DNA of 8,943 bases from a virus. Its lineage: Duplodnaviria > Heunggongvirae > Uroviricota > Caudoviricetes. A model generated the notes under the pieces. The model was not told the origin of the DNA. It ran no database searches and was given only the letters and a program-made list of their open reading frames with translations. Shown piece after piece: positions 1 through 8,943 of the stretch (positions are counted from its first letter, which is position 1; every line of letters begins with the position of its first letter). The stretch spans positions 1-8,943 of the IMG/VR virus record IMGVR_UViG_2563366853_000003, one strand, 5' to 3'. Made by a program: the position numbers and the translations under genes.

Positions 1-456
1 CGTGCGCTGCTGTTAAGCCGCAAGAATCCGTTTGGCGATATCAAATCGGATGGCACCGTGAAAACGGCTCTCGAAAACCTTGGTTTGGGAGAAGCGGCAA
101 AACGGGATGTGGGTAACGGGCAAAACCAAATTCCTGATATGTCAGCGTGGGAGTGTGGGGGAGATACAACGACGGGATGGAGACGAAGCCCGGATGGTTA
201 TATTGAACAATGGGGGCTAACTGAGGCCACAACAAATGAAGTTTTGATTAATTTTCCTATCCCATTTCCGACAGCCGTCATTTCTATTAATGAACATGAC
301 CAGGCTCCTGTGGCAGGGAAAATGTCAGTATGGCAATTCTATAAATTGACTAACTCAAATGTCATAGCAGAGAACCTGGGATCTCTTGATAAAGGAAATC
401 CATCCTTCAATGTTCCAACTGTCGCTGGTTGCCGCTGGTTTGCTACAGGAAGATAA
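1..456 (+). CDS. phage tail fiber protein, C-terminal part (5' end lies outside the window); variable host-range portion after the crossover site
   Basis: Frame 1 is open from base 1 to TAA at 454-456. Translation ...KNPFGDIKSDGTVKTALENLGLGE... resembles the constant/variable junction of Mu S / P1 S / e14 Stf type tail fibers. The crossover site at 68-93 lies in frame (GLGE). Confidence 0.8.
   Translation, partial: RALLLSRKNPFGDIKSDGTVKTALENLGLGEAAKRDVGNGQNQIPDMSAWECGGDTTTGWRRSPDGYIEQWGLTEATTNEVLINFPIPFPTAVISINEHDQAPVAGKMSVWQFYKLTNSNVIAENLGSLDKGNPSFNVPTVAGCRWFATGR
68..93. other. left crossover site for the DNA invertase (gix/hix/pix-like 26-bp imperfect palindrome)
   Basis: CTCTCGAAAACC-TT-GGTTTGGGAGAA. 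The inner half GGTTTGGGAGAA is the exact reverse complement of TTCTCCCAAACC at 1940-1951. The A-rich ...AAAACC TT GGTTT... core is as in Hin/Gin sites. Confidence 0.6.
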
Positions 457-457
457 A

Positions 458-898
458 ATGAGTAAATATCTTTACGATGCAAAAACTAATATGTTTTACC
501 CATTTACTCTGGAAAGTCAGTATAAGGAGTCTGGGTTATGGCCTCATAATGGAGTTGAAGTTGATGAGGATATATTTATTAAGTACCTGTCCCCACCTCC
601 AGGGAAGGTGAGAGTTGCGGGTGATGATGGCTATCCTGCATGGGATGACGTACCGCCGCTAACTCATGAAGAACAACTGTCAGAAGCGGAACGAAAAAAA
701 CAGGCACTCATAAATCGAGTTAATGAATATATTAACAGTAAGCAGTGGCCAGGAAAGGCTGCTATTGGTCGTCTGAAAGGTGAGGAGCTGGCGCAATATA
801 ATTCATGGCTTGATTATCTGGACGCACTGGAAATGGTTGATATTTCCAGTGCTCCAGATATTGAATGGCCTACGCCTCCGGCAGTTCAGGCCAGATGA
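458..898 (+). CDS. tail fiber assembly protein (Tfa chaperone), active-orientation copy
   Basis: ATG at 458, 1 nt after the tail-fiber stop, with SD GGAAG at 448-452. Product MSKYLYDAKTNMFYPF... ends with the conserved Tfa C-terminus (...APDIEWPTPP...). The longer ORF from 386 overlaps the tail-fiber gene and is not the start. Confidence 0.8.
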   Translation: MSKYLYDAKTNMFYPFTLESQYKESGLWPHNGVEVDEDIFIKYLSPPPGKVRVAGDDGYPAWDDVPPLTHEEQLSEAERKKQALINRVNEYINSKQWPGKAAIGRLKGEELAQYNSWLDYLDALEMVDISSAPDIEWPTPPAVQAR

Positions 899-1472
899 CG
901 TCCGGCGCGGTGCTGGTATCTGTTGCCGTCACCGCGTCAATGTAATCCAGCACAGCGTTAAGTCTGGTTGTTTCTGCCTGCGTCGGTTTACGTCCGGCCT
1001 GCAATTTCAGTTGAATCAGACTGATGGAAGCCATTGCTGCATCAATCAGTGACTGGCGCTGTGCTTCTGCCGCTTCTACTGCGGCACCGTGTTGTGCCTC
1101 AGTATCTGTCACCCATTTTTCACCATCCCATTTATCGTATGGCGTTAACGGGGCGATAGTGGTTGTATTTTCGGGATAGTCGCCTAGTGCTGTGATTTCT
1201 TTGGCATCTCCCGTTTCGGTGTTATAGACGATTTCACCGCGATGGTCTGACACATATTCCCATGATTTTAAATCCACAGAACGGCAAATTGTATAACCAG
1301 CCTTAGATGTACCAGGAGCGTCTAAACAGGAATATGCTGGAATACCGACACCCACTGCAAGATATTCAGTTGATGCAGAAATATATTCCCGCGTCTCACC
1401 ATCATAGTTATAGACGGTAATATTCCCCGCCTTCGTGGTAATAAGCTCGCTATTTAATACGGCGTTATCCAT
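870..1472 (-). CDS. tail fiber assembly protein, alternate copy (Tfa') in the invertible segment
   Basis: 200-aa ORF MDNAVLNSELITTKAGN... with the Tfa-like C-terminus ...APDVIWPELPEA. Its 3' end overlaps the + strand tfa 3' end by 29 bp (870-898). Start overlaps the upstream stop (TAATG) and has a GAGGG SD. Confidence 0.8.
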   Translation of the reverse strand: MDNAVLNSELITTKAGNITVYNYDGETREYISASTEYLAVGVGIPAYSCLDAPGTSKAGYTICRSVDLKSWEYVSDHRGEIVYNTETGDAKEITALGDYPENTTTIAPLTPYDKWDGEKWVTDTEAQHGAAVEAAEAQRQSLIDAAMASISLIQLKLQAGRKPTQAETTRLNAVLDYIDAVTATDTSTAPDVIWPELPEA

Positions 1473-1953
1473 TATGCAGCCCTCACGATATAGTTAAATG
1501 CAATATTTCGTGGACGGGTTTCACTCCCGCCAGTATTACCGATACTCCCTCGTGAATGAAGTGTCGGTGATGGGATCAGACTTCCTCCGGCAGCGGCAGC
1601 ATCAAGCCCCCTGCCTTGCGTATATGCTCTTCTGAAGATTGTCGCCAGTTCCCATTCCTCTTTTGAGTCATACCCATCGTTGGCGACAACAGGATGACGG
1701 TGCTTTTCCAGCATTCCGGCCTGAATACTCAATAAAACACGTCCTGCATCAATACCGCGCCCGTCATCCCAGCCACGAATAAACTCACCGCGTAAATCAG
1801 GTAATTTATTTGTTGGATAAGCCTTTGCCAGTTCCGGGTATTCTTCAGCAGAAAATGCCGCACCGTTGCATTTCAGCCAGCCTGTTGGCGGTGTGGCTGA
1901 AGGCCATGGAACAGGCACACCAACAGGTAATGCAGAGCCTTCTCCCAAACCAA
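1472..1953 (-). CDS. alternative tail-fiber C-terminal variable segment (no start codon of its own; would be fused to the constant part after inversion)
   Basis: Open frame on - runs from the right crossover site (codons GLGE encoded by 1940-1951, in frame) to the stop at 1472-1474. Sequence ...GSALPVGVPVPWPSATPPTGWLKCNGAAFSAEEYPELAKAY... is typical of a tail-fiber receptor-binding tip. The ORF-track start MMPFAC is read-through into the site. Confidence 0.65.
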
Positions 1954-1965
1954 CGTTTATGAAAA
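1940..1965. other. right crossover site for the DNA invertase
   Basis: TTCTCCCAAACC-AA-CGTTTATGAAAA, inverted relative to the site at 68-93 and sharing a perfect 12-bp half. Confidence 0.6.
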
Positions 1966-2019
1966 TGAAGAAATAACAAGCAAATGGCATCATTCCTGCT
2001 TTTACCAGGGGGAATTAAC

Positions 2020-2574
2020 ATGCTTATTGGCTATGTACGTGTATCAACAAATGACCAGAATACCGATCTACAACGTAATGCGCTGAACTGTGCAGGATGT
2101 GAGCTGATTTTTGAAGACAAGATAAGCGGTACAAAGTCCGACAGACCAGGACTGAAAAAGCTGCTCAGGACATTATCGGCAGGTGACACGCTGGTGGTCT
2201 GGAAACTGGACCGACTGGGGCGCAGTATGCGGCATCTTGTCGTGCTGGTGGAGGAGTTGCGCGAACGAGGCATCAACTTTCGTAGTCTGACGGATTCAAT
2301 TGATACCAGTACCCCAATGGGGCGCTTTTTCTTTCATGTGATGGGTGCCCTGGCTGAAATGGAGCGTGAACTGATTGTTGAACGAACAAAAGCTGGACTG
2401 GAAGCTGCTCGCGCACAGGGACGAATTGGTGGACGTCGCCCCAAACTTACACCAGAACAATGGGAGCAGGCCGGACGATTAATTGCAGCAGGAATTCCTC
2501 GCCAGAAGGTAGCGATCATCTATGATGTTGGTGTATCGACACTGTATAAGATGTTTCCGGTCGGAGATAAATGA
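2020..2574 (+). CDS. serine DNA invertase, Pin/Gin/Cin/Hin family
   Basis: ATG at 2020 with SD GGGGGAA at 2008-2014. Product MLIGYVRVSTNDQNTDLQRNAL...GDTLVVWKLDRLGRSM...GINFRSLTDSIDT...MGRFFFHVMGALAEMERELI...GRIGGRRPKL... matches the resolvase/invertase catalytic domain (active-site Ser in YVRVST) and C-terminal HTH. The ORF-track start at 1984 is upstream of the SD-linked ATG. Confidence 0.9.
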   Translation: MLIGYVRVSTNDQNTDLQRNALNCAGCELIFEDKISGTKSDRPGLKKLLRTLSAGDTLVVWKLDRLGRSMRHLVVLVEELRERGINFRSLTDSIDTSTPMGRFFFHVMGALAEMERELIVERTKAGLEAARAQGRIGGRRPKLTPEQWEQAGRLIAAGIPRQKVAIIYDVGVSTLYKMFPVGDK

Positions 2575-2576
2575 AA

Positions 2577-2610
2577 CCGCAGGCTCGTCGTATGCAAGAT
2601 CGTGCTGCGG
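2577..2610. repeat. 34-bp dyad-symmetric repeat, copy A (possible bidirectional terminator between the convergent invertase and GIY-YIG genes)
   Basis: CCGCAGGCTCGTCGTATGCAAGATCGTGCTGCGG. Arms CCGCAG / CTGCGG are flanked by T-rich sequence on both strands. By eye about 28/34 identical to copies at 3598-3631 and 6268-6301. Confidence 0.45.
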
Positions 2611-2632
2611 TTTATGCTTATCACTTAAAGAC

Positions 2633-3502
<870 letters not shown>

Positions 3503-3597
3503 CTAATCCTTTGAATTTACATAGTAAAAAAAGATACTTTTCCTCATAGTGTGAGCTAATTTTATGTTTCGTTTGATGATCGGACCGGTCTCAAAAA

Positions 3598-3675
3598 CCG
3601 CAGGCACGTTGTATGCAAGAACGTGCTGTGGCTGGCTGGTGAACTTCCAATAGTGCGAATATTGAATGATGTCCA
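3598..3675. repeat. repeat copy B (34-bp core plus about 45-bp extension shared with copy C)
   Basis: Core CCGCAGGCACGTTGTATGCAAGAACGTGCTGTGG. The extension GCTGGCTGGTGAACTTCCAATAGTGCGAATATTGAATGATGTCCA aligns without gaps to 6301-6345 with about 7 mismatches. Confidence 0.5.
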
Positions 3676-3794
3676 GCCGTTACCGTTTTTACGTGTTTAT
3701 TAGTGAACAAACCACTCGTCAGCAGACTCCTAGGTATGAACAAAAGTTTTAGCTGAAACTCTATCTGTGGTGCGCGTAACAGAAGTGTAATAAA

Positions 3795-3813
3795 AGGCCC
3801 TAGAAAAGGGCCT
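3795..3813 (-). terminator. putative Rho-independent terminator (- strand)
   Basis: Perfect 7-bp stem AGGCCCT / AGGGCCT with a 5-nt loop, followed on the - strand by TTTATTA. Sits 15 bp downstream of the small ORF stop. Confidence 0.5.
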
Positions 3814-3827
3814 AAGATTAGCAAAGA

Positions 3828-3971
3828 TTATCCTCGATACTTAGAGGCAGGAATTTTGATAGGAAAGGCTGCCAAGCCTTTTTGACGAGCAAAGATCCGT
3901 TTACCTTTGACCGTAATAAAAGGACGGTAAATTGTGATGTATTCCTCAGATACAGCTTTTTCAATGGTCAT
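3828..3971 (-). CDS. small hypothetical protein (47 aa)
   Basis: ATG at 3971 to TAA at 3828-3830: MTIEKAVSEEYITIYRPFITVKGKRIFARQKGLAAFPIKIPASKYRG. Followed by the hairpin terminator. Below the ORF-track size cutoff; SD is weak (AGGT). Confidence 0.35.
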   Translation of the reverse strand: MTIEKAVSEEYITIYRPFITVKGKRIFARQKGLAAFPIKIPASKYRG

Positions 3972-3997
3972 ATCGTGTTACCTGTAAAGTTTCGCTG

Positions 3998-4025
3998 TTG
4001 ACAAAACCTAAGGTAAGCGTATACT
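3998..4025 (+). promoter_or_regulatory. sigma70-type promoter (-35 TTGACA, 16-bp spacer, -10 TATACT)
   Basis: Consensus -35 at 3998-4003 and near-consensus -10 at 4020-4025. No protein-coding ORF with a start follows; a terminator lies about 45 bp downstream. Confidence 0.5.
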
Positions 4026-4031
4026 CACAAC

Positions 4032-4094
4032 CGCCAAGTTTTTCGTATTTGCTTACGATAGGAGAAGCCAGCGACAGCGGTTCGCTGGCTTTTT
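4032..4094 (+). ncRNA. candidate small RNA (about 60-65 nt) between promoter and terminator, convergent with the ImmA-like gene 3' end
   Basis: Delimited by the 3998-4025 promoter and the 4067-4094 intrinsic terminator. No start codon in the interval. Confidence 0.3.
4067..4094 (+). terminator. Rho-independent terminator (+ strand)
   Basis: Stem GCCAGCGA / TCGCTGGC (8 bp) with a 7-nt loop, followed by TTTTT. Ends 2 bp before the ImmA-like stop codon on the opposite strand. Confidence 0.55.
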
Positions 4095-4096
4095 CG

Positions 4097-4630
4097 TTAT
4101 CTTTTTGCATTTTTTCTCATCCAAGTTTCAGCCGCTTGTTGACTGACACCAAATGTTTTGCTTATATCTTCAACAGTCATTGTGGGCAAAACTAGTCTTG
4201 AGTCAATTAAGAAGTGGCTTGCAAAAACATCTGCTTGCCATTCGCTGTCTTCATAGATTTTATGCCCTCCACTAGTCTTATTACGTGCATAGATACTTTG
4301 ATTGCGATGCATGACTAAATGACCAAGTTCATGCGCAACAGTGAATCTCGCATGGTTCTCACCATTGCACACTGCATCGTAAACAGATCGCTGTAAAACA
4401 ATTTTGTTCTTATCTGGATAAGTCACTGCATAGCGTTTGGGCAGTTCATGATCTTCAACAATTTCTAGCTCAATGCTTTCTGAGGCCATAAGACCTTCTA
4501 GTAATACATCCAGTCTCAGATATGTGTGATTTGATATCTGAAGAACGTCTCTCAGACGATGAGCGTATGATTTAATCATGCTGGTGCTGAGAGGTGAAAC
4601 GCGATGGCCAAGTTCTCGTTTCGCAATCAT
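4097..4630 (-). CDS. ImmA/IrrE-family Zn-metallopeptidase (HEXXH; COG2856-like)
   Basis: 177 aa with the HEXXH motif (HELGHLVMH) and downstream ...SEWQADVFASHFL.... Its ATG sits 3 nt after the stop of the upstream XRE gene, so the two are likely cotranscribed. Confidence 0.8.
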   Translation of the reverse strand: MIAKRELGHRVSPLSTSMIKSYAHRLRDVLQISNHTYLRLDVLLEGLMASESIELEIVEDHELPKRYAVTYPDKNKIVLQRSVYDAVCNGENHARFTVAHELGHLVMHRNQSIYARNKTSGGHKIYEDSEWQADVFASHFLIDSRLVLPTMTVEDISKTFGVSQQAAETWMRKNAKR

Positions 4631-4633
4631 TAT

Positions 4634-4984
4634 TCAGTCCTTTAACATTTTATTAAGCTTATCGAGTTGCTCTGGACTCAGGTCCTTAAATTTACGAGCA
4701 AAAACAAGCATTAGTTCTTTGTTCTGCTCATTTGCATCCGACATATCAACCTTAATGGACGGTTGAGAAATCTCTGCCTGTTTCTTGAGATTGATGATGT
4801 CTTGTCCGCTAAGCTCAAAAGTTGTTGCAATCGTATTTACTAATGAGTCCGGTATAGCTCTTTTGCCTAATTCAATGGCGGATAAGTAAGCCGAACTAAC
4901 GCCTAACAGATCAGCCATATTTTTGAGCACCATACCCCGGTCTATTCTCATTTTTCTGAGAGTCTTACCAAAGCTAGTTACCAT
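4634..4984 (-). CDS. XRE-family helix-turn-helix transcriptional regulator
   Basis: Start ATG at 4984 preceded by a perfect SD AGGAGG with a 6-nt spacer. HTH_XRE signature LRKMRIDRGMVLKNMADLLGVSSAYLSAIELGKR. The ORF-track start at 5011 is a GTG upstream of the SD. Confidence 0.8.
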   Translation of the reverse strand: MVTSFGKTLRKMRIDRGMVLKNMADLLGVSSAYLSAIELGKRAIPDSLVNTIATTFELSGQDIINLKKQAEISQPSIKVDMSDANEQNKELMLVFARKFKDLSPEQLDKLNKMLKD

Positions 4985-5010
4985 GTTGCGCCTCCTACAA
5001 TCCATGCTCA

Positions 5011-5039
5011 CTTATACTAAAAACCAAACTCAAGATCAA
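5011..5039 (-). promoter_or_regulatory. putative sigma70 promoter for the XRE/ImmA operon (-35 TTGATC, 17-bp spacer, -10 TATAAG)
   Basis: Hexamers read on the - strand, placed about 20-30 nt upstream of the XRE SD. Confidence 0.4.
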
Positions 5040-5266
5040 CAAAAATTGTAGAATTTTTTAATCTCAGCGTGTGATGACAATCTACATAAAATCATGAAAT
5101 GGTGCAAGGCGTAACTTAAAAAATACCATATGTAGTGTCAATTTTATGTGCTGTATGGATATATGGGGTTGGTAAACTTTTGCTCTTTTGTGCTCCTCAG
5201 CTATATGGTTGTTTGATTTTTGAACATCTTGTGGAACATAAATTGGGTTTATGCTTTTCCCTTTCG

Positions 5267-5294
5267 GTGACAACATGTTTATAGGATGTATAAT
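5267..5294 (+). promoter_or_regulatory. putative sigma70 promoter for the Bro-N gene (-35 GTGACA, 16-bp spacer, -10 TATAAT)
   Basis: Perfect -10 hexamer at 5289-5294, followed by SD AGGAGG at 5305-5310 and GTG start at 5318. Confidence 0.5.
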
Positions 5295-5317
5295 CCATAA
5301 AAAAAGGAGGGGATGGC

Positions 5318-6079
5318 GTGCAAAAGAATTTGTTACAATTATGCTACGAAGGAGAGTGTGGAGAAAATTATATCCGTAGCATGAATGAAAAAGGGCAGAT
5401 TTTTGTTTCACTTTCAGATGTGCTAAGAACGCTTTCTGCTGAGAACAGAAAACTGGATGGAAAGACTTCTCAAAGCTTGCTCACTGTAATAAGAGCGGTA
5501 ATAAAAACTTTAGATCCAGATGAGTTTAGGAATGTTTCTCTTGTCGTGGATGGTGAAACTATCTCTGAGGTATTTCTTACTGAACCAGGTCTATATAGAG
5601 TACTTGCTCAGGATACTACTGCTGCGGGGAAAAAATTCCAACGCTGGCTTTTTCATCAGGTCCTTCCGTCTATTCGTGAATTTGGTGTATATCCTCCGCC
5701 ACCTAAGCAAGAACGTTCAGAACTGAGTGCTTTTGCTAACAGTCTGCAGCAGACGGTTCAAGCATTGGTAATGGAAATAGAAAAACGTGAAGAGTTAGAA
5801 AGTAGAGTAAACCAAGTTGAACTAAAAGTTAACTCGTTAGAAAGTTTAAGAGATTTGTCTCAGTTCAGAAGTGTTCCTCAACGATTGATGGAGTTAGGTT
5901 TGGATACCTATTCGGTTGAGGAGCTTTGGCAATGGTGTGAAAAATTGCGTAGTGAACGTGGAGCAGAAAGAATTAAGTGCCCCTCCGGATTGAATATAAA
6001 TTCTTGCTATCCATTAGCTTTGGTTGATGAAGCTATCGCTATATACCAGAAAGTAGTTGAGGCAAGAACACGTCAGTGA
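5318..6079 (+). CDS. Bro-N domain protein (phage antirepressor-like) with a predicted coiled-coil C-terminal region
   Basis: GTG start 7 nt after SD AGGAGG. The N-terminal half (...IFVSLSDVLRTL...GLYRVLAQDTTAAGKKFQRWLFHQVLPSIREFGVY) matches the Bro-N signature; the C-terminal half is heptad-like (EIEKREELESRVNQVELKVNSLESL). Confidence 0.75.
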   Translation: MQKNLLQLCYEGECGENYIRSMNEKGQIFVSLSDVLRTLSAENRKLDGKTSQSLLTVIRAVIKTLDPDEFRNVSLVVDGETISEVFLTEPGLYRVLAQDTTAAGKKFQRWLFHQVLPSIREFGVYPPPPKQERSELSAFANSLQQTVQALVMEIEKREELESRVNQVELKVNSLESLRDLSQFRSVPQRLMELGLDTYSVEELWQWCEKLRSERGAERIKCPSGLNINSCYPLALVDEAIAIYQKVVEARTRQ

Positions 6080-6088
6080 GCTTGAGGG

Positions 6089-6118
6089 AAAAAAAAGCCC
6101 GCATAAGCGGGCTTTTTT
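6089..6118 (+). terminator. strong Rho-independent terminator (bidirectional shape)
   Basis: AAAAAAAA-GCCCGC-ATAA-GCGGGC-TTTTTT, starting 10 bp after the Bro-N stop. Confidence 0.8.
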
Positions 6119-6243
6119 ATCACTCGGGAGCTGCGGCTCCTTTGCGTATCCTTTTTTGTCTCCTCACCGTCTGGTCGGTGTCCTGCTGAGACTGCTAACA
6201 TCCTGTTTTTGTTGGTGTTGTCCTTACACCGTCCAATCATGAT

Positions 6244-6271
6244 TGGTGGAGCTGGCGGGAGTTGAACCCGC
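6244..6271 (-). other. ssrA (tmRNA) 3'-end fragment, att-site-like scar
   Basis: Reverse complement reads GCGGGTTCAACTCCCGCCAGCTCCACCA (T-arm, acceptor 3' strand, CCA), which I recall as the terminal 28 nt of enterobacterial tmRNA. No upstream tmRNA body is present. Confidence 0.55.
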
Positions 6272-6345
6272 TGACACGTCGTATGCAAGAACTTGCTGCG
6301 GCTGGATGGTGGACTTTCGATAGTGCGAGTATTGAATGATTTCCA
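6268..6345. repeat. repeat copy C (34-bp core plus about 45-bp extension), directly abutting the ssrA fragment
   Basis: Core CCGCTGACACGTCGTATGCAAGAACTTGCTGCGG, then GCTGGATGGTGGACTTTCGATAGTGCGAGTATTGAATGATTTCCA. Overlaps the ssrA fragment by 4 nt. Confidence 0.5.
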
Positions 6346-6764
6346 TCTATTATAGATTTTACCGTATTTCGGCATGAATGAAACTGAATATCCTCCCACC
6401 GACCCTCCATGACTTTACACCACTGTCTCTGGGGCTGCTATGTGCCAAAAGCGGACATAACGACACGTTAGTTAGAAATCTCAAGACCAATTAGGTTGGA
6501 TACTTACATGTATACTATTGCCTAACGATACTACCCTATCAACCTCATGGTTTATAGGCGGGGGTGAGAGCCAATCGAACGCTATCGTACGTTTTTATGC
6601 TGTCTACCCTAGACCCCAAGTAGACATGAATCTTACCTGATTTCCATACGAGGGCGACGTTGATCATCCAGCTTTAGTGCGAGCACTGAACTTAACATTT
6701 ACCAGCAATAGTGATATTTTCTACAAAGAAAAATATATGGAATAACGTCATCGCGGGTACAAAA

Positions 6765-7757
6765 ATGACTATAAAAAAAACATATGTAACACCAACAGAA
6801 ATAGTGAAATATTTTTATGACAAACCGGAAAACGATAACGTAAAAGAGAGAAAAACAATTGAGAGCCTGACCCGTCTCAAACCTGAGTGGGAAAATACTC
6901 TCGATATGATGAAGTTAATACGCAATTGTGAAAAGCTAGCAACTGAAGGTATTTTAATGGAATTGTCTTCAGGACATACTCTTTTTGACCGTTGCTATTT
7001 CGCACCGAATTTCAATGAATCAGATGCGAAATATGGAAAGTATGATTTTATAGCTGATGGATTTGAGTCAATCATAGACCGCCTTAGTCCTTCCGTTTTA
7101 CCTGTTGTTGTTGAAAAAAGTGATGGTTCACATGATCTTGGTACTAGTTTTATTGTTGGGAATAACCACACGATATTTACAGCCAGACATGTTATTGAAG
7201 ACATGAAGAGTATCAGGATACTTAGAGCTGGTGGTGAGGCTTTACCAATACATAAAATCTTTGTATCTAACGATGAACGTATTGATATCGCTTTAGTTTT
7301 CACAACCATTCCGAATGAAGATAATATTCAACCACTTAAGGTCTCAACCAAAGCCTCGGTACTGGATGAAATTTTATCAATAGGATTTCCACCCATTCCA
7401 GGATTTGATGCATTAAAGTTATATGACGTTTCGCATATAAATTCGTTTGTCCGACTGTCAAAGGGGCGAATTGTTGGTTCTGGTCACTCTTACTTAGATT
7501 CACAAGACTTTTTATTATTCAATGCTAGGGTTAAGGGGGGGAATAGCGGTGGCCCTATAATTAACAAATACGGCCTTGTTGTTGGTATGCTTGTACAAAT
7601 ACCAATATCATCTGAGGACAGTTCAAAGATTGATAACCTTGGATATGGTATAGCTGTAACAGGAAAAAGCCTGCTGGATGCCATTACATTTACAGAAAAT
7701 GGCCGCGAATTAACACTCACCGACCGAGGAAATGGAGAATATTCAACTCTAGCATAA
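6765..7757 (+). CDS. trypsin-like (chymotrypsin-fold) serine protease with N-terminal domain of unknown function; no signal peptide
   Basis: Catalytic triad in order: His in FTARHVIED, Asp in DIALV, Ser in GGNSGGPI. The first ~115 aa have no recognisable motif and no hydrophobic leader. Start is uncertain: ATG 6765 chosen, GTG 6711 is the alternative; both have a weak SD. Confidence 0.7.
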   Translation: MTIKKTYVTPTEIVKYFYDKPENDNVKERKTIESLTRLKPEWENTLDMMKLIRNCEKLATEGILMELSSGHTLFDRCYFAPNFNESDAKYGKYDFIADGFESIIDRLSPSVLPVVVEKSDGSHDLGTSFIVGNNHTIFTARHVIEDMKSIRILRAGGEALPIHKIFVSNDERIDIALVFTTIPNEDNIQPLKVSTKASVLDEILSIGFPPIPGFDALKLYDVSHINSFVRLSKGRIVGSGHSYLDSQDFLLFNARVKGGNSGGPIINKYGLVVGMLVQIPISSEDSSKIDNLGYGIAVTGKSLLDAITFTENGRELTLTDRGNGEYSTLA

Positions 7758-8404
7758 ATGATATTATTAATTAAGTTGTACTAACTCAGTTTAAATGAAT
7801 CAAGCATCCCCGTAACTTTGCCTGAAAAGGCTCATCGAGGGATGCACATTGTACGGATGTGTGAAAACTAAATCGGCTTTGTCACTTGGATTCGAGGGGA
7901 AAACTGAACTGAAAGCGATAAAAACGTCTAAAAAATCGTTTCGCAGACAGATGCACCCGATTCAAGCCATTTTGAGGAAGACTTTCTGCCTTTTATATTT
8001 ATATTAATCATAAGGTTATTCCATTGGTGTACGATATCGTGCTTTGCCCCTCATCTCCCAGATAACTAATTAGCCTTAAAATTACTCATGTGTTTCTGCC
8101 GGTTAAAATTATATGGTTTTCATTTACAATAGTCTCAAGTCCGCTCTTCGCTCATAACAGACATTCACTACAGTTATGGTAGAAGATATGCATGCTGGGT
8201 GGGGAAAGTATGAAGGAAAAGAAGGCTGCTGTGTCGTTTGACATCACTGCAATCTTCTTATTGGTTATGCGGGTCGTAGTGGGACAAAACTGAGACACAT
8301 AAGGCCTAGCAATGGCTTGCAAGGCTTTACATGTTTTGATGTGGTGGGACTTGTGAGCGCAGTGTTGATAGGGTAATGCTTTGAATTAGAAGCGGATTCT
8401 TATA

Positions 8405-8450
8405 ATTCGTAATGCGAAGGTCGTAGGTTCGACTCCTATTATCGGCACCA
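8405..8450 (+). other. tRNA-Thr 3' fragment (anticodon loop to CCA), att-site-like direct-repeat remnant
   Basis: ATTCGTAATGCGAAGGTCGTAGGTTCGACTCCTATTATCGGCACCA has a T-arm and acceptor 3' strand plus CCA, with anticodon CGT in the loop. The preceding sequence does not form the 5' half of a tRNA. The match to a tRNA-Thr (thrW-like) is from memory. Confidence 0.65.
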
Positions 8451-8604
8451 TTCTAACGTCTCCCCAAGTCTACTCAAGTATTTAAAAACCTCTTATAATC
8501 AGTATATTAATGCCCCTTTTAGTCTTTTGACGTCTATTTAAGTACCCCAAACTCTACAAGCAATTGAGGGGATTTGCTGTTCAGTTTAGTGGAGATACCC
8601 CCAA

Positions 8605-8943
8605 GTGAAACTCAATGCCCGTCAAATAGACACTGCCAAGCCAAAAGAGAAGGCTTACAAGTTGGCTGATGGTGGTGGTCTGTACCTCCTGGTAAAACCT
8701 GGTGGAGGAGAATATTGGCGTCTCAAGTATCGTGTAGCTGGTAAAGAGAAGCTGTTAGCACTAGGTGTGTATCCTGAGGTCACCTTAGCTGATGCTCCTG
8801 CAAAACTTGAAGAAGCTAAAAGAGGTATCTCTGGGGGAATCGATCTGATGGAAGTGAAGCGAGAGGAAAAGATTGCCCGGGAAACGCAGTTAAACAACAC
8901 CTTCAAAGATATTGCCCTTGAGTGGCACAGTAACAAATTATAA
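8605..8943 (+). CDS. P4-type tyrosine integrase, N-terminal arm-binding domain only (112 aa; likely truncated or pseudogene)
   Basis: MKLNARQIDTAKPKEKAYKLADGGGLYLLVKPGGGEYWRLKYRVAGKEKLLALGVYPEVTLADA... is the characteristic N-terminus of P4-like integrases. In-frame TAA at 8941-8943 cuts the protein before the catalytic domain. The gene lies immediately downstream of the tRNA fragment. Confidence 0.75.
   Translation: MKLNARQIDTAKPKEKAYKLADGGGLYLLVKPGGGEYWRLKYRVAGKEKLLALGVYPEVTLADAPAKLEEAKRGISGGIDLMEVKREEKIARETQLNNTFKDIALEWHSNKL

Follow-up and report, generated by a model that had tools for sequence, protein, structure and literature searches.

We examined a gene for a trypsin-like serine protease in an 8,943-nucleotide stretch of DNA (positions 1 to 8,943 of the tailed-phage record IMGVR_UViG_2563366853_000003; hereafter the window). 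The gene lies at 6765..7757 on the plus strand, encodes 330 amino acids followed by a stop codon, and corresponds to a RefSeq coding sequence in locus L001 (WP_000152898.1, 'S1 family peptidase'). Along the window it is preceded by pin (1984-2574), PD-T4-3 (2633-3457), a pair of genes for an ImmA peptidase and a helix-turn-helix (HTH) protein, and a BRO-N gene, in this order. Although a preliminary description made from the letters had started the gene at 6711, RefSeq gives ATG 6765 as the true start, and the equivalent Met opens the homologues in our alignment. The longest open reading frame (ORF), 6711..7757 on the plus strand, is present, and GTG 6711 is its in-frame, mechanical start; this codon has no Shine-Dalgarno sequence and sits within a promoter-like site (6692..6720, plus strand; TTAACA-17-TG-TATTTT, by consensus match only) in an upstream stretch that is kept with Klebsiella.

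The protein is covered over its full length (1-330) by phrog_18002 of PHROGs ('unknown function'). Because the ratio of nonsynonymous to synonymous substitution rates (dN/dS) was 0.12-0.15 against homologues with 82-87% identity, we regard it as the product of a functional protease gene under purifying selection and not of a chance ORF. Both parts of the protein are under such selection, the N-terminal domain (dN/dS 0.16-0.21) changing faster than the protease domain (0.09-0.12), and the mean identity of homologues to the query was 33% and 46% for the two domains, respectively. The AT-rich surroundings and the non-coding upstream DNA mentioned in the preliminary description were both borne out: the G + C content of the gene is 37% as compared with 48% in the prophage tail-fibre/pin region (1-2574), and RefSeq shows no gene from the end of the BRO-N gene (6079) to 6765. 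The smallest DNA unit common to the copies in Escherichia coli and on a Klebsiella plasmid spans 6657..7807 on the plus strand (blastn against L003, 84% nucleotide identity). It consists of the gene with about 108 bp upstream and 50 bp downstream, and is the only DNA shared between the E. coli and Klebsiella copies.

The protease and its N-terminal winged-helix domain

Residues 113-299 (7101..7661, plus strand) form a protease domain with an HtrA/DegS-like chymotrypsin fold, as judged by Pfam, Foldseek, and alignment. Pfam assigned Trypsin_2 to this part with an E-value of 1.7e-17, and a Foldseek search of residues 113-299 against the Protein Data Bank (PDB) returned DegQ, DegP, and DegS at an E-value of 8e-15 over about 220 columns with 20-22% identity. 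The His/Asp/Ser triad that had been read from the letters was confirmed in all three motifs on the plus strand, namely His142 in FTARHVIED (codon 7188-7190), Asp174 in RIDIALV (7284-7286), and Ser261 in KGGNSGGPI (7545-7547), and the three residues were invariant in 56 of 56 homologues, down to 26% identity in the alignment. A full-length AlphaFold2 model made with the 56-sequence alignment had a predicted local distance difference test score (pLDDT) of 88 and a predicted template modelling score (pTM) of 0.87. With its invariant triad, fold match, and purifying selection, the catalytic domain is intact and can be predicted to be competent.

The HtrA proteases (DegS, DegP, and DegQ; MEROPS S1C) share the chymotrypsin-type fold and the GNSGG serine loop with the window protein and are its best structural and NCBIfam match. 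The window protein differs from them, however, in having a winged helix at the N-terminus and a tail of 30 residues at the C-terminus and in lacking a PDZ domain and an anchor. Pfam gave no match to a PDZ domain at E <= 1, and about 30 residues follow the protease domain. The best NCBIfam score was 46 bits as against a cut-off of 416 for TIGR02037, and the remaining HtrA-type models stayed far below their cut-offs. None of the 56 homologues has a hydrophobic run of at least 12 residues within its first 40 residues, and signal peptides, which the preliminary description had suggested looking for among homologues, were found in none of them. As the protein has neither a signal peptide nor a membrane anchor, the protease is most simply placed in the cytoplasm. 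Its sequence thus marks it as a predicted cytoplasmic trypsin-fold protease outside the DegP/HtrA family; the earlier statement that it is not a periplasmic protease of the DegP/HtrA type holds in all three respects, namely PDZ domain, envelope location, and family score. The C-terminal tail (residues 300-330; 7662..7754, plus strand) comprises two short helices and a beta-hairpin according to the secondary structure of the model, where pLDDT is high, and to the alignment. It ends in a conserved G-[FY]-x-T and occupies the position of the PDZ domain in HtrA proteases.

The N-terminal domain extends over residues 1-112 (6765..7100, plus strand) and is divided into a winged helix (residues ~10-80) and a helical linker (residues 85-111). 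The N-terminal residues with the strongest conservation lie in the linker helices, in which Tyr90, Gly91, Tyr93, Gly99, and Phe100 are near-invariant. Structure prediction, which the preliminary description had proposed for this region, gave a winged helix, and we accordingly describe the domain as having a predicted winged-helix fold on the strength of the model. It is not a known protease pro-domain, a possibility raised earlier. The statement that the N-terminus of the protein matches nothing recognizable held in that no Pfam family, HTH families included, matched the 112 residues in any of 40 members; it did not hold for the nature of the region, which is a domain of about 112 residues with a winged helix. 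Sequence searches with the domain (Pfam on the 40 members and a profile against PDB) returned sub-threshold DEP, AsnC, and YjjI-like matches, the PDB profile search giving E-values of at least 0.055 and Pfam one weak match to DEP. The DEP domain is itself a winged helix. A weak Pfam match to CTD12 (ABC-3C) fell across the false N-terminal extension and was lost once the protein was begun at its true start.

A profile of the N-terminal domain found 163 proteins among 1.84 billion representative proteins. Of these, 137 were new representatives, comprising 123 with the protease domain, 12 fragments of at most 167 amino acids, and two odd long matches without a protease domain that are probably spurious. 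Because the profile finds only the architecture of a winged helix followed by a protease, which all full-length representatives possess, the domain is considered private to this protease family. The preliminary description had suggested that the N-terminal domain could be a sensor; as a shuffled sensor module it was rejected, since among the 1.84 billion representatives it was found solely in combination with this protease.

The mean net charge of the domain among the homologues is -2.1, charge being a crude proxy, and there is no conserved basic surface; the acidic character therefore does not suggest DNA binding. The order of an N-terminal winged-helix-type domain and a serine peptidase in a single chain resembles that of LexA and CI, which combine a winged HTH with an S24 serine peptidase; these have a Ser-Lys dyad and a different fold, and are self-cleaving. 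Unlike in LexA/CI, the winged helix of the window protein has no conserved basic surface and falls outside the Pfam HTH families. The winged-helix fold is also shared with regulators of the MarR, PadR, and ArsR types, whereas the HTH family membership and the basic surface of those regulators were not found here.

Module boundaries and distribution

The preliminary description had placed the gene between a 3' fragment of ssrA and a 3' fragment of a tRNA-Thr gene, and sequence matches confirmed both scars. The left scar consists of the last 28 nt of ssrA (6244..6271, minus strand; GCGGGTTCAACTCCCGCCAGCTCCACCA), which correspond to positions 347-363 of the Rfam transfer-messenger RNA (tmRNA) model and coincide with an annotated ssrA in many genomes. 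It adjoins 118 nt of native ssrA-ypjA intergenic DNA (6126..6243, minus strand; 93-98% identity), the counterpart of which follows ssrA in an empty-site strain (L059) and, in a K-12-type strain (L060), adjoins ypjA where CP4-57 has its right junction. The ssrA end and the ssrA-ypjA DNA together mark the left scar as an attR-type junction that derives from an ssrA island and now sits, inverted, within the thrW locus. It may have come there through aberrant excision of such an island. The right scar is a 48-nt 3' fragment of thrW (8405..8452, plus strand), 100% identical to the annotated E. coli tRNA-Thr. It serves both as the attR of the prophage and as the attL of the Vat island next to it, and forms the right boundary of the module. 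ARAGORN detected no complete tRNA or tmRNA in the window. Other E. coli genomes, the left contexts of which differ, share a module that runs from scar to scar, from about 6233/6268 to 8452-8473.

In thrW-type contexts, the left module boundary (6233/6265-6268) coincides with a 'prophage right-end' repeat at 6265..6400 on the minus strand. This repeat of about 100-130 nt is present in three copies in the window (2574-2610, 3595-3728, and 6265-6400) with 82-89% identity, and the copies part the cargo modules from each other. Further copies were found at L002 19018-19143, L061 2501-2606, L062 2501-2652, and L063 2501-2597; outside the window, the repeat sits immediately inward of the right ends of prophage remnants (Qin, Rac-side, and lambda-site) and in the ykgJ-ecpE gap. 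On the minus strand the repeat can be folded into two hairpins, the second of which is terminator-like with a U run, and compensatory changes occur between the copies; a comparison with Rfam gave no match at E <= 1. As precisely the DNA between copies 2 and 3 is missing in strain DX6, the repeat probably serves as a homology anchor for cargo exchange, although it could also be a 3'UTR or a small RNA.

Of 5,426 complete E. coli genomes, 60 (~1%) carry the protease gene, and the full module is present in 41 of these 60; the copies are always located in cargo slots of mobile elements and always near tail-fibre genes. From 6000 to 8943 the window shows 100% identity with strains A22, A32, and FDAARGOS_1284 of E. 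coli. In A32 the window forms the right-hand end of a prophage that carries genes for a Mu-type tail, tail fibres, and a Pin invertase and that we take to be of the e14/SfV-like type; beyond the window follow a truncated P4-type integrase, a MarR gene, the vat toxin gene, yagU, ykgJ, and ecp, and the locus is the variable region beside thrW. The protease directly follows PD-T4-3 in strain DX6, and in a further set of E. coli strains it stands, behind DUF2971 and DUF4236 genes, at the end of a prophage whose tail genes are of the lambda type.

In strain 120899 and similar strains, the protease occupies a slot of a P2-like prophage directly upstream of the sheath gene FI. The shared module (6437..8162, plus strand) is 99.4% identical to that of strain 120899 by blastn (L049), where the order is tail-fibre assembly, S1 peptidase, sheath FI, tube, E, T, U, D, and ogr. 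The gene directly upstream of FI in the P2 reference is fun(Z) ('blocks growth of T5'), and according to Vassallo et al. (2022; PMC9519451) the fun locus is a second site in P2-like phages that is enriched for defence. A homologue with 82% identity likewise lies in a P2-like phage, near tail-fibre genes and an invertase, and the same phage carries GAPS4. In about 19 E. coli genomes, a 1.8-kb insertion is present 3' of the protease gene (L002 9932-11732; at about 8139-8167 of the window). It encodes a 288-amino-acid hypothetical protein with a weak DUF3644 match and a 57-amino-acid ORF, and it is probably separate cargo because it is not conserved elsewhere.

Outside E. coli, IncF plasmids of Klebsiella carry a copy with 87% identity next to a GNAT/DUF1778 toxin-antitoxin pair. 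A Pseudomonas homologue (54%) is flanked by HEPN_AbiU2 and DUF4238 genes on a contig with primase-type genes (L052; DUF927 and Toprim); DUF4238 is a validated defence system (PMC9122126). An identical Pseudomonas protein is encoded in L051 (8001-8993), ~2.6 kb from a gene for an HrpL-like sigma factor and a type III secretion cluster and near a Fic-domain gene. This is the sole secretion-system context found, so the consistent secretion context that the preliminary description had considered as an alternative setting reduces to a single case, with the L052 copy lying between defence genes. Among the sequenced phages of INPHARED there was a single distant partial match, and among the prophage predictions of IMG/VR the family occurs in nine E. 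coli-type and three distant contigs, the neighbours in the latter being uninformative.

A survey of 39 homologue neighbourhoods from Bacteroidota, Cyanobacteria, Alphaproteobacteria, Opitutia, and Nitrospinaceae, of the kind that the preliminary description had suggested, supported its view that the gene stands alone. With three genes considered on each side (blastp and phmmer), no neighbour family occurred in more than 3-4 of the 39 loci, and there was thus no conserved partner gene. In the window, the small ORFs that flank the protease gene fall outside the Klebsiella-shared unit (6657-7807), and there is no ORF longer than 56 amino acids from the protease gene to the thrW' fragment. In the distant phyla, AbiEii, prokaryotic Argonaute (pAgo) with TIR-APAZ, HipA, Mrr, and nSTAND3 were among the two genes on each side, as were three classes of defence-type reverse transcriptase (RT). 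Many of the Bacteroidota and cyanobacterial homologues have no recognizable phage genes nearby.

Possible role in phage defence and alternatives

The reading that we favour, tentatively and at a little short of an even chance, is that the protease is a self-contained cytoplasmic protein that acts by itself in defence or abortive infection and travels as prophage cargo. We favour it because a mobile single-gene unit that has an upstream region of its own and resides in anti-phage slots here combines a predicted-competent cytoplasmic protease with a dedicated domain. Its rarity (60/5,426), its foreign G + C content of 37%, horizontal transfer, and its residence in cargo slots of mobile elements that are unrelated to each other are in line with this reading, as is the occurrence of Trypsin_2 domains in established systems (the PADLOC RT-protease, LmuA, and HamA matches and the trypsin-MBL preprint cited below). 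Defence neighbours recorded across the family are PD-T4-3, AbiU2, DUF4238, AbiEii, pAgo, defence-type reverse transcriptases, and GAPS4, alongside housekeeping neighbours. This genomic company fits the candidate anti-phage effector proposed in the preliminary description, whereas the function itself is assigned by association only.

A more specific and rather doubtful version of this proposal is that the single chain is both sensor and executioner, in which the private winged helix would see a phage protein and allosterically switch on the HtrA-like protease. DegS, in which an attached regulatory domain holds the protease off until a ligand binds, serves as the working model. On the favoured reading itself, the protease would be made in the lysogen but stay inactive, with the winged helix, the linker, and the tail holding it off in the role that PDZ plays in DegS. 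A ligand made by the infecting phage would then bind to the winged helix and release the protease; the acidic character of the winged-helix domain favours a protein or peptide over DNA as this ligand. Once free, the protease would cleave a protein, of the host or of the phage, that is essential, and the infection would be stopped. Such cleavage logic would parallel the cutting of EF-Tu by Lit of e14, an unrelated protease. Lit is a zinc metalloprotease that causes abortive infection by cleaving EF-Tu upon sensing the Gol peptide of T4. The likeness to Lit consists in a single protease on an e14-type prophage and in the proposed mode of action only; the folds are unrelated, and no sequence or structural relationship is seen or expected. 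Likewise, fun(Z) of P2, PD-T4-3, and McrA of e14 (where McrA comes after pin) have the position in the slot in common with the window protease, which is an association and not homology. These occupants are unrelated as proteins and in their chemistry, which includes GIY-YIG and HNH nucleases.

Protease-based immunity candidates are the known kind to which the window protein is closest, and it belongs to no catalogued system. One close system is the trypsin-MBL (metallo-beta-lactamase) module associated with Hachiman, short Ago, AVAST, and ABC-3C systems, in which a trypsin at the N-terminus of the sensor activates an adjacent MBL nuclease by cleavage (bioRxiv 10.1101/2025.09.03.673762). Both proteases are cytoplasmic and of the Trypsin_2 type, and the PADLOC models of HamA1 and LmuA match the window protein in its protease domain only. 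Membership of this module was rejected, as the protease domain of the window protein is C-terminal, with no fusion to a sensor and no MBL neighbour. The PADLOC model RT-Protease_XI was also rejected, since its match is limited to positions 340-486 of 506, the protease part, and the window protein contains no reverse transcriptase domain.

Several points weigh against a defence function. No phenotype is known for the family, which literature searches found in no publication and which appears in no defence catalogue, and no PADLOC model covers the whole protein. The N-terminal domain, by its sequence, is not common to other effectors, unlike many modular defence sensors. The association with defence genes is not exclusive, many neighbours in the distant phyla being housekeeping genes (L19, TrmD, RRF, MutS, and LptFG), and non-defence genes also ride in prophage cargo slots. 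Furthermore, the trigger, the target, and the autoinhibition are purely our inference.

Among the other explanations, one that we consider unlikely is that the gene is mobile-element cargo for a purpose other than defence, its product cleaving a regulator in a competing element or in the host, for example a repressor, anti-repressor, or defence protein of the host, in element competition or counter-defence. The gene is always on mobile elements and in the window is close to the ImmA/HTH pair and the anti-repressor-like BRO-N gene, and the joining of a winged helix to a serine peptidase recalls the LexA/CI design. However, the protease module occurs without ImmA, HTH, and BRO genes in DX6, in P2 prophages, and on plasmids, the Bacteroidota and cyanobacterial homologues that have no recognizable phage genes nearby do not fit such a role, and the average charge of the winged helix is acidic. 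A selfish addiction or toxin-like gene, in which a latent protease stabilizes the element and is checked by the N-terminal domain or by an unrecognized small RNA or peptide, appears still less probable: the position of the Klebsiella IncF copy beside the GNAT/DUF1778 pair and the HipA and AbiE-type toxin genes that adjoin elsewhere would agree with it, and ietAS provides a precedent for a protease toxin (PMC13069673), but there is no conserved partner ORF, the flanking small ORFs lie outside the Klebsiella-shared unit, and a single-gene addiction module has no obvious way of working.

We give a similarly small chance to an accessory cytoplasmic protease of quality control or stress that is mobile by chance and aids host fitness. 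By sequence and fold the protein is indeed nearest to quality-control proteases of the HtrA type, and some homologues stand among housekeeping genes, whereas the rare and patchy distribution (~1% of E. coli; 163 of 1.84 billion representatives), the lack of a PDZ domain and of an envelope location, the foreign G + C content, and the residence in hotspots are not what such a protease would lead one to expect. Very improbable, in our estimation, is an effector exported by, for example, type III secretion, or a protease for the maturation of virions or tail fibres. The L051 Pseudomonas copy by the type III cluster and the Fic gene and the E. coli copies near tail-fibre genes are what prompts this explanation. 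Against export, the identical Pseudomonas protein is also encoded between AbiU2 and DUF4238 genes, and the predicted winged helix begins at about residue 10 and leaves no space for a disordered secretion leader; most homologues have neither a phage nor a secretion context. A role in tail-fibre maturation was rejected since no more than about 1% of E. coli genomes have the gene, and its absence from almost all P2-like and e14-like prophages indicates that it is not needed for tail assembly.

If the protease is a one-protein defence system as we favour, it would add a mechanistically distinct, single-gene unit of 1 kb to the defence repertoire and would be the first defence system made from an S1C protease alone, a Lit-like strategy reinvented on an unrelated fold and exchanged between prophages via conserved end sequences. 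It would also offer a tractable model of a cytoplasmic HtrA-type protease gated by a non-PDZ domain, for which escape mutants would reveal the phage trigger and the cleavage target. The tail-fibre-adjacent slot of e14 and lambdoid prophages appears to behave like the fun slot of P2 and is thus a place to search for new defence genes, and the short conserved end elements would allow cargo to move among unrelated prophages. A protein with no phage phenotype, on the other hand, would be merely another uncharacterized accessory peptidase.

Other genes and elements of the window

The PD-T4-3 gene (2633-3457, minus strand) lies directly after pinE, at a distance of two modules from the protease gene, and is complete, with a full-length PADLOC match at 2.4e-140. 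PD-T4-3 is a single-gene GIY-YIG (LEM-3-like) anti-T4 system (Vassallo et al. 2022; PMC9519451). The ImmA/IrrE metallopeptidase and the HTH repressor encoded at 4097-5011 on the minus strand resemble CapP and CapH in PADLOC (5e-15 and 6e-11), and the BRO-N 'anti-repressor' gene (5318-6079, plus strand) is divergent from them. Relative to DX6, this ImmA/HTH/BRO-N module as a whole is an insertion or a deletion, and it could act as a switch that responds to damage and controls the BRO-N gene.

At the left of the window, a 20-nt inverted repeat (75-94 and 1939-1958; 95% complementary) flanks a segment of ~1.86 kb beside pinE (1984-2574, plus strand), in which the genes for the tip and the assembly of tail fibres form two sets that face in opposite directions. 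This arrangement identifies the segment as a predicted Pin-type invertible host-range switch. The BRO-N gene is followed by a strong bidirectional terminator hairpin (6084-6125; AAAAAAGCCCGC...GCGGGCTTTTTT). Rfam matches at 6012-6230 (Leu, Trp, and Thr leaders, STnc350, and PrrB/RsmZ) were below the gathering score and were dismissed as spurious, because this terminator hairpin produces them. At the right end (8605-8943, plus strand) the window contains the N-terminus of a P4-type integrase, with its Arm DNA-binding region, which RefSeq records as a truncated pseudogene; this remnant belongs to the adjoining island with the MarR gene and the vat autotransporter toxin gene.

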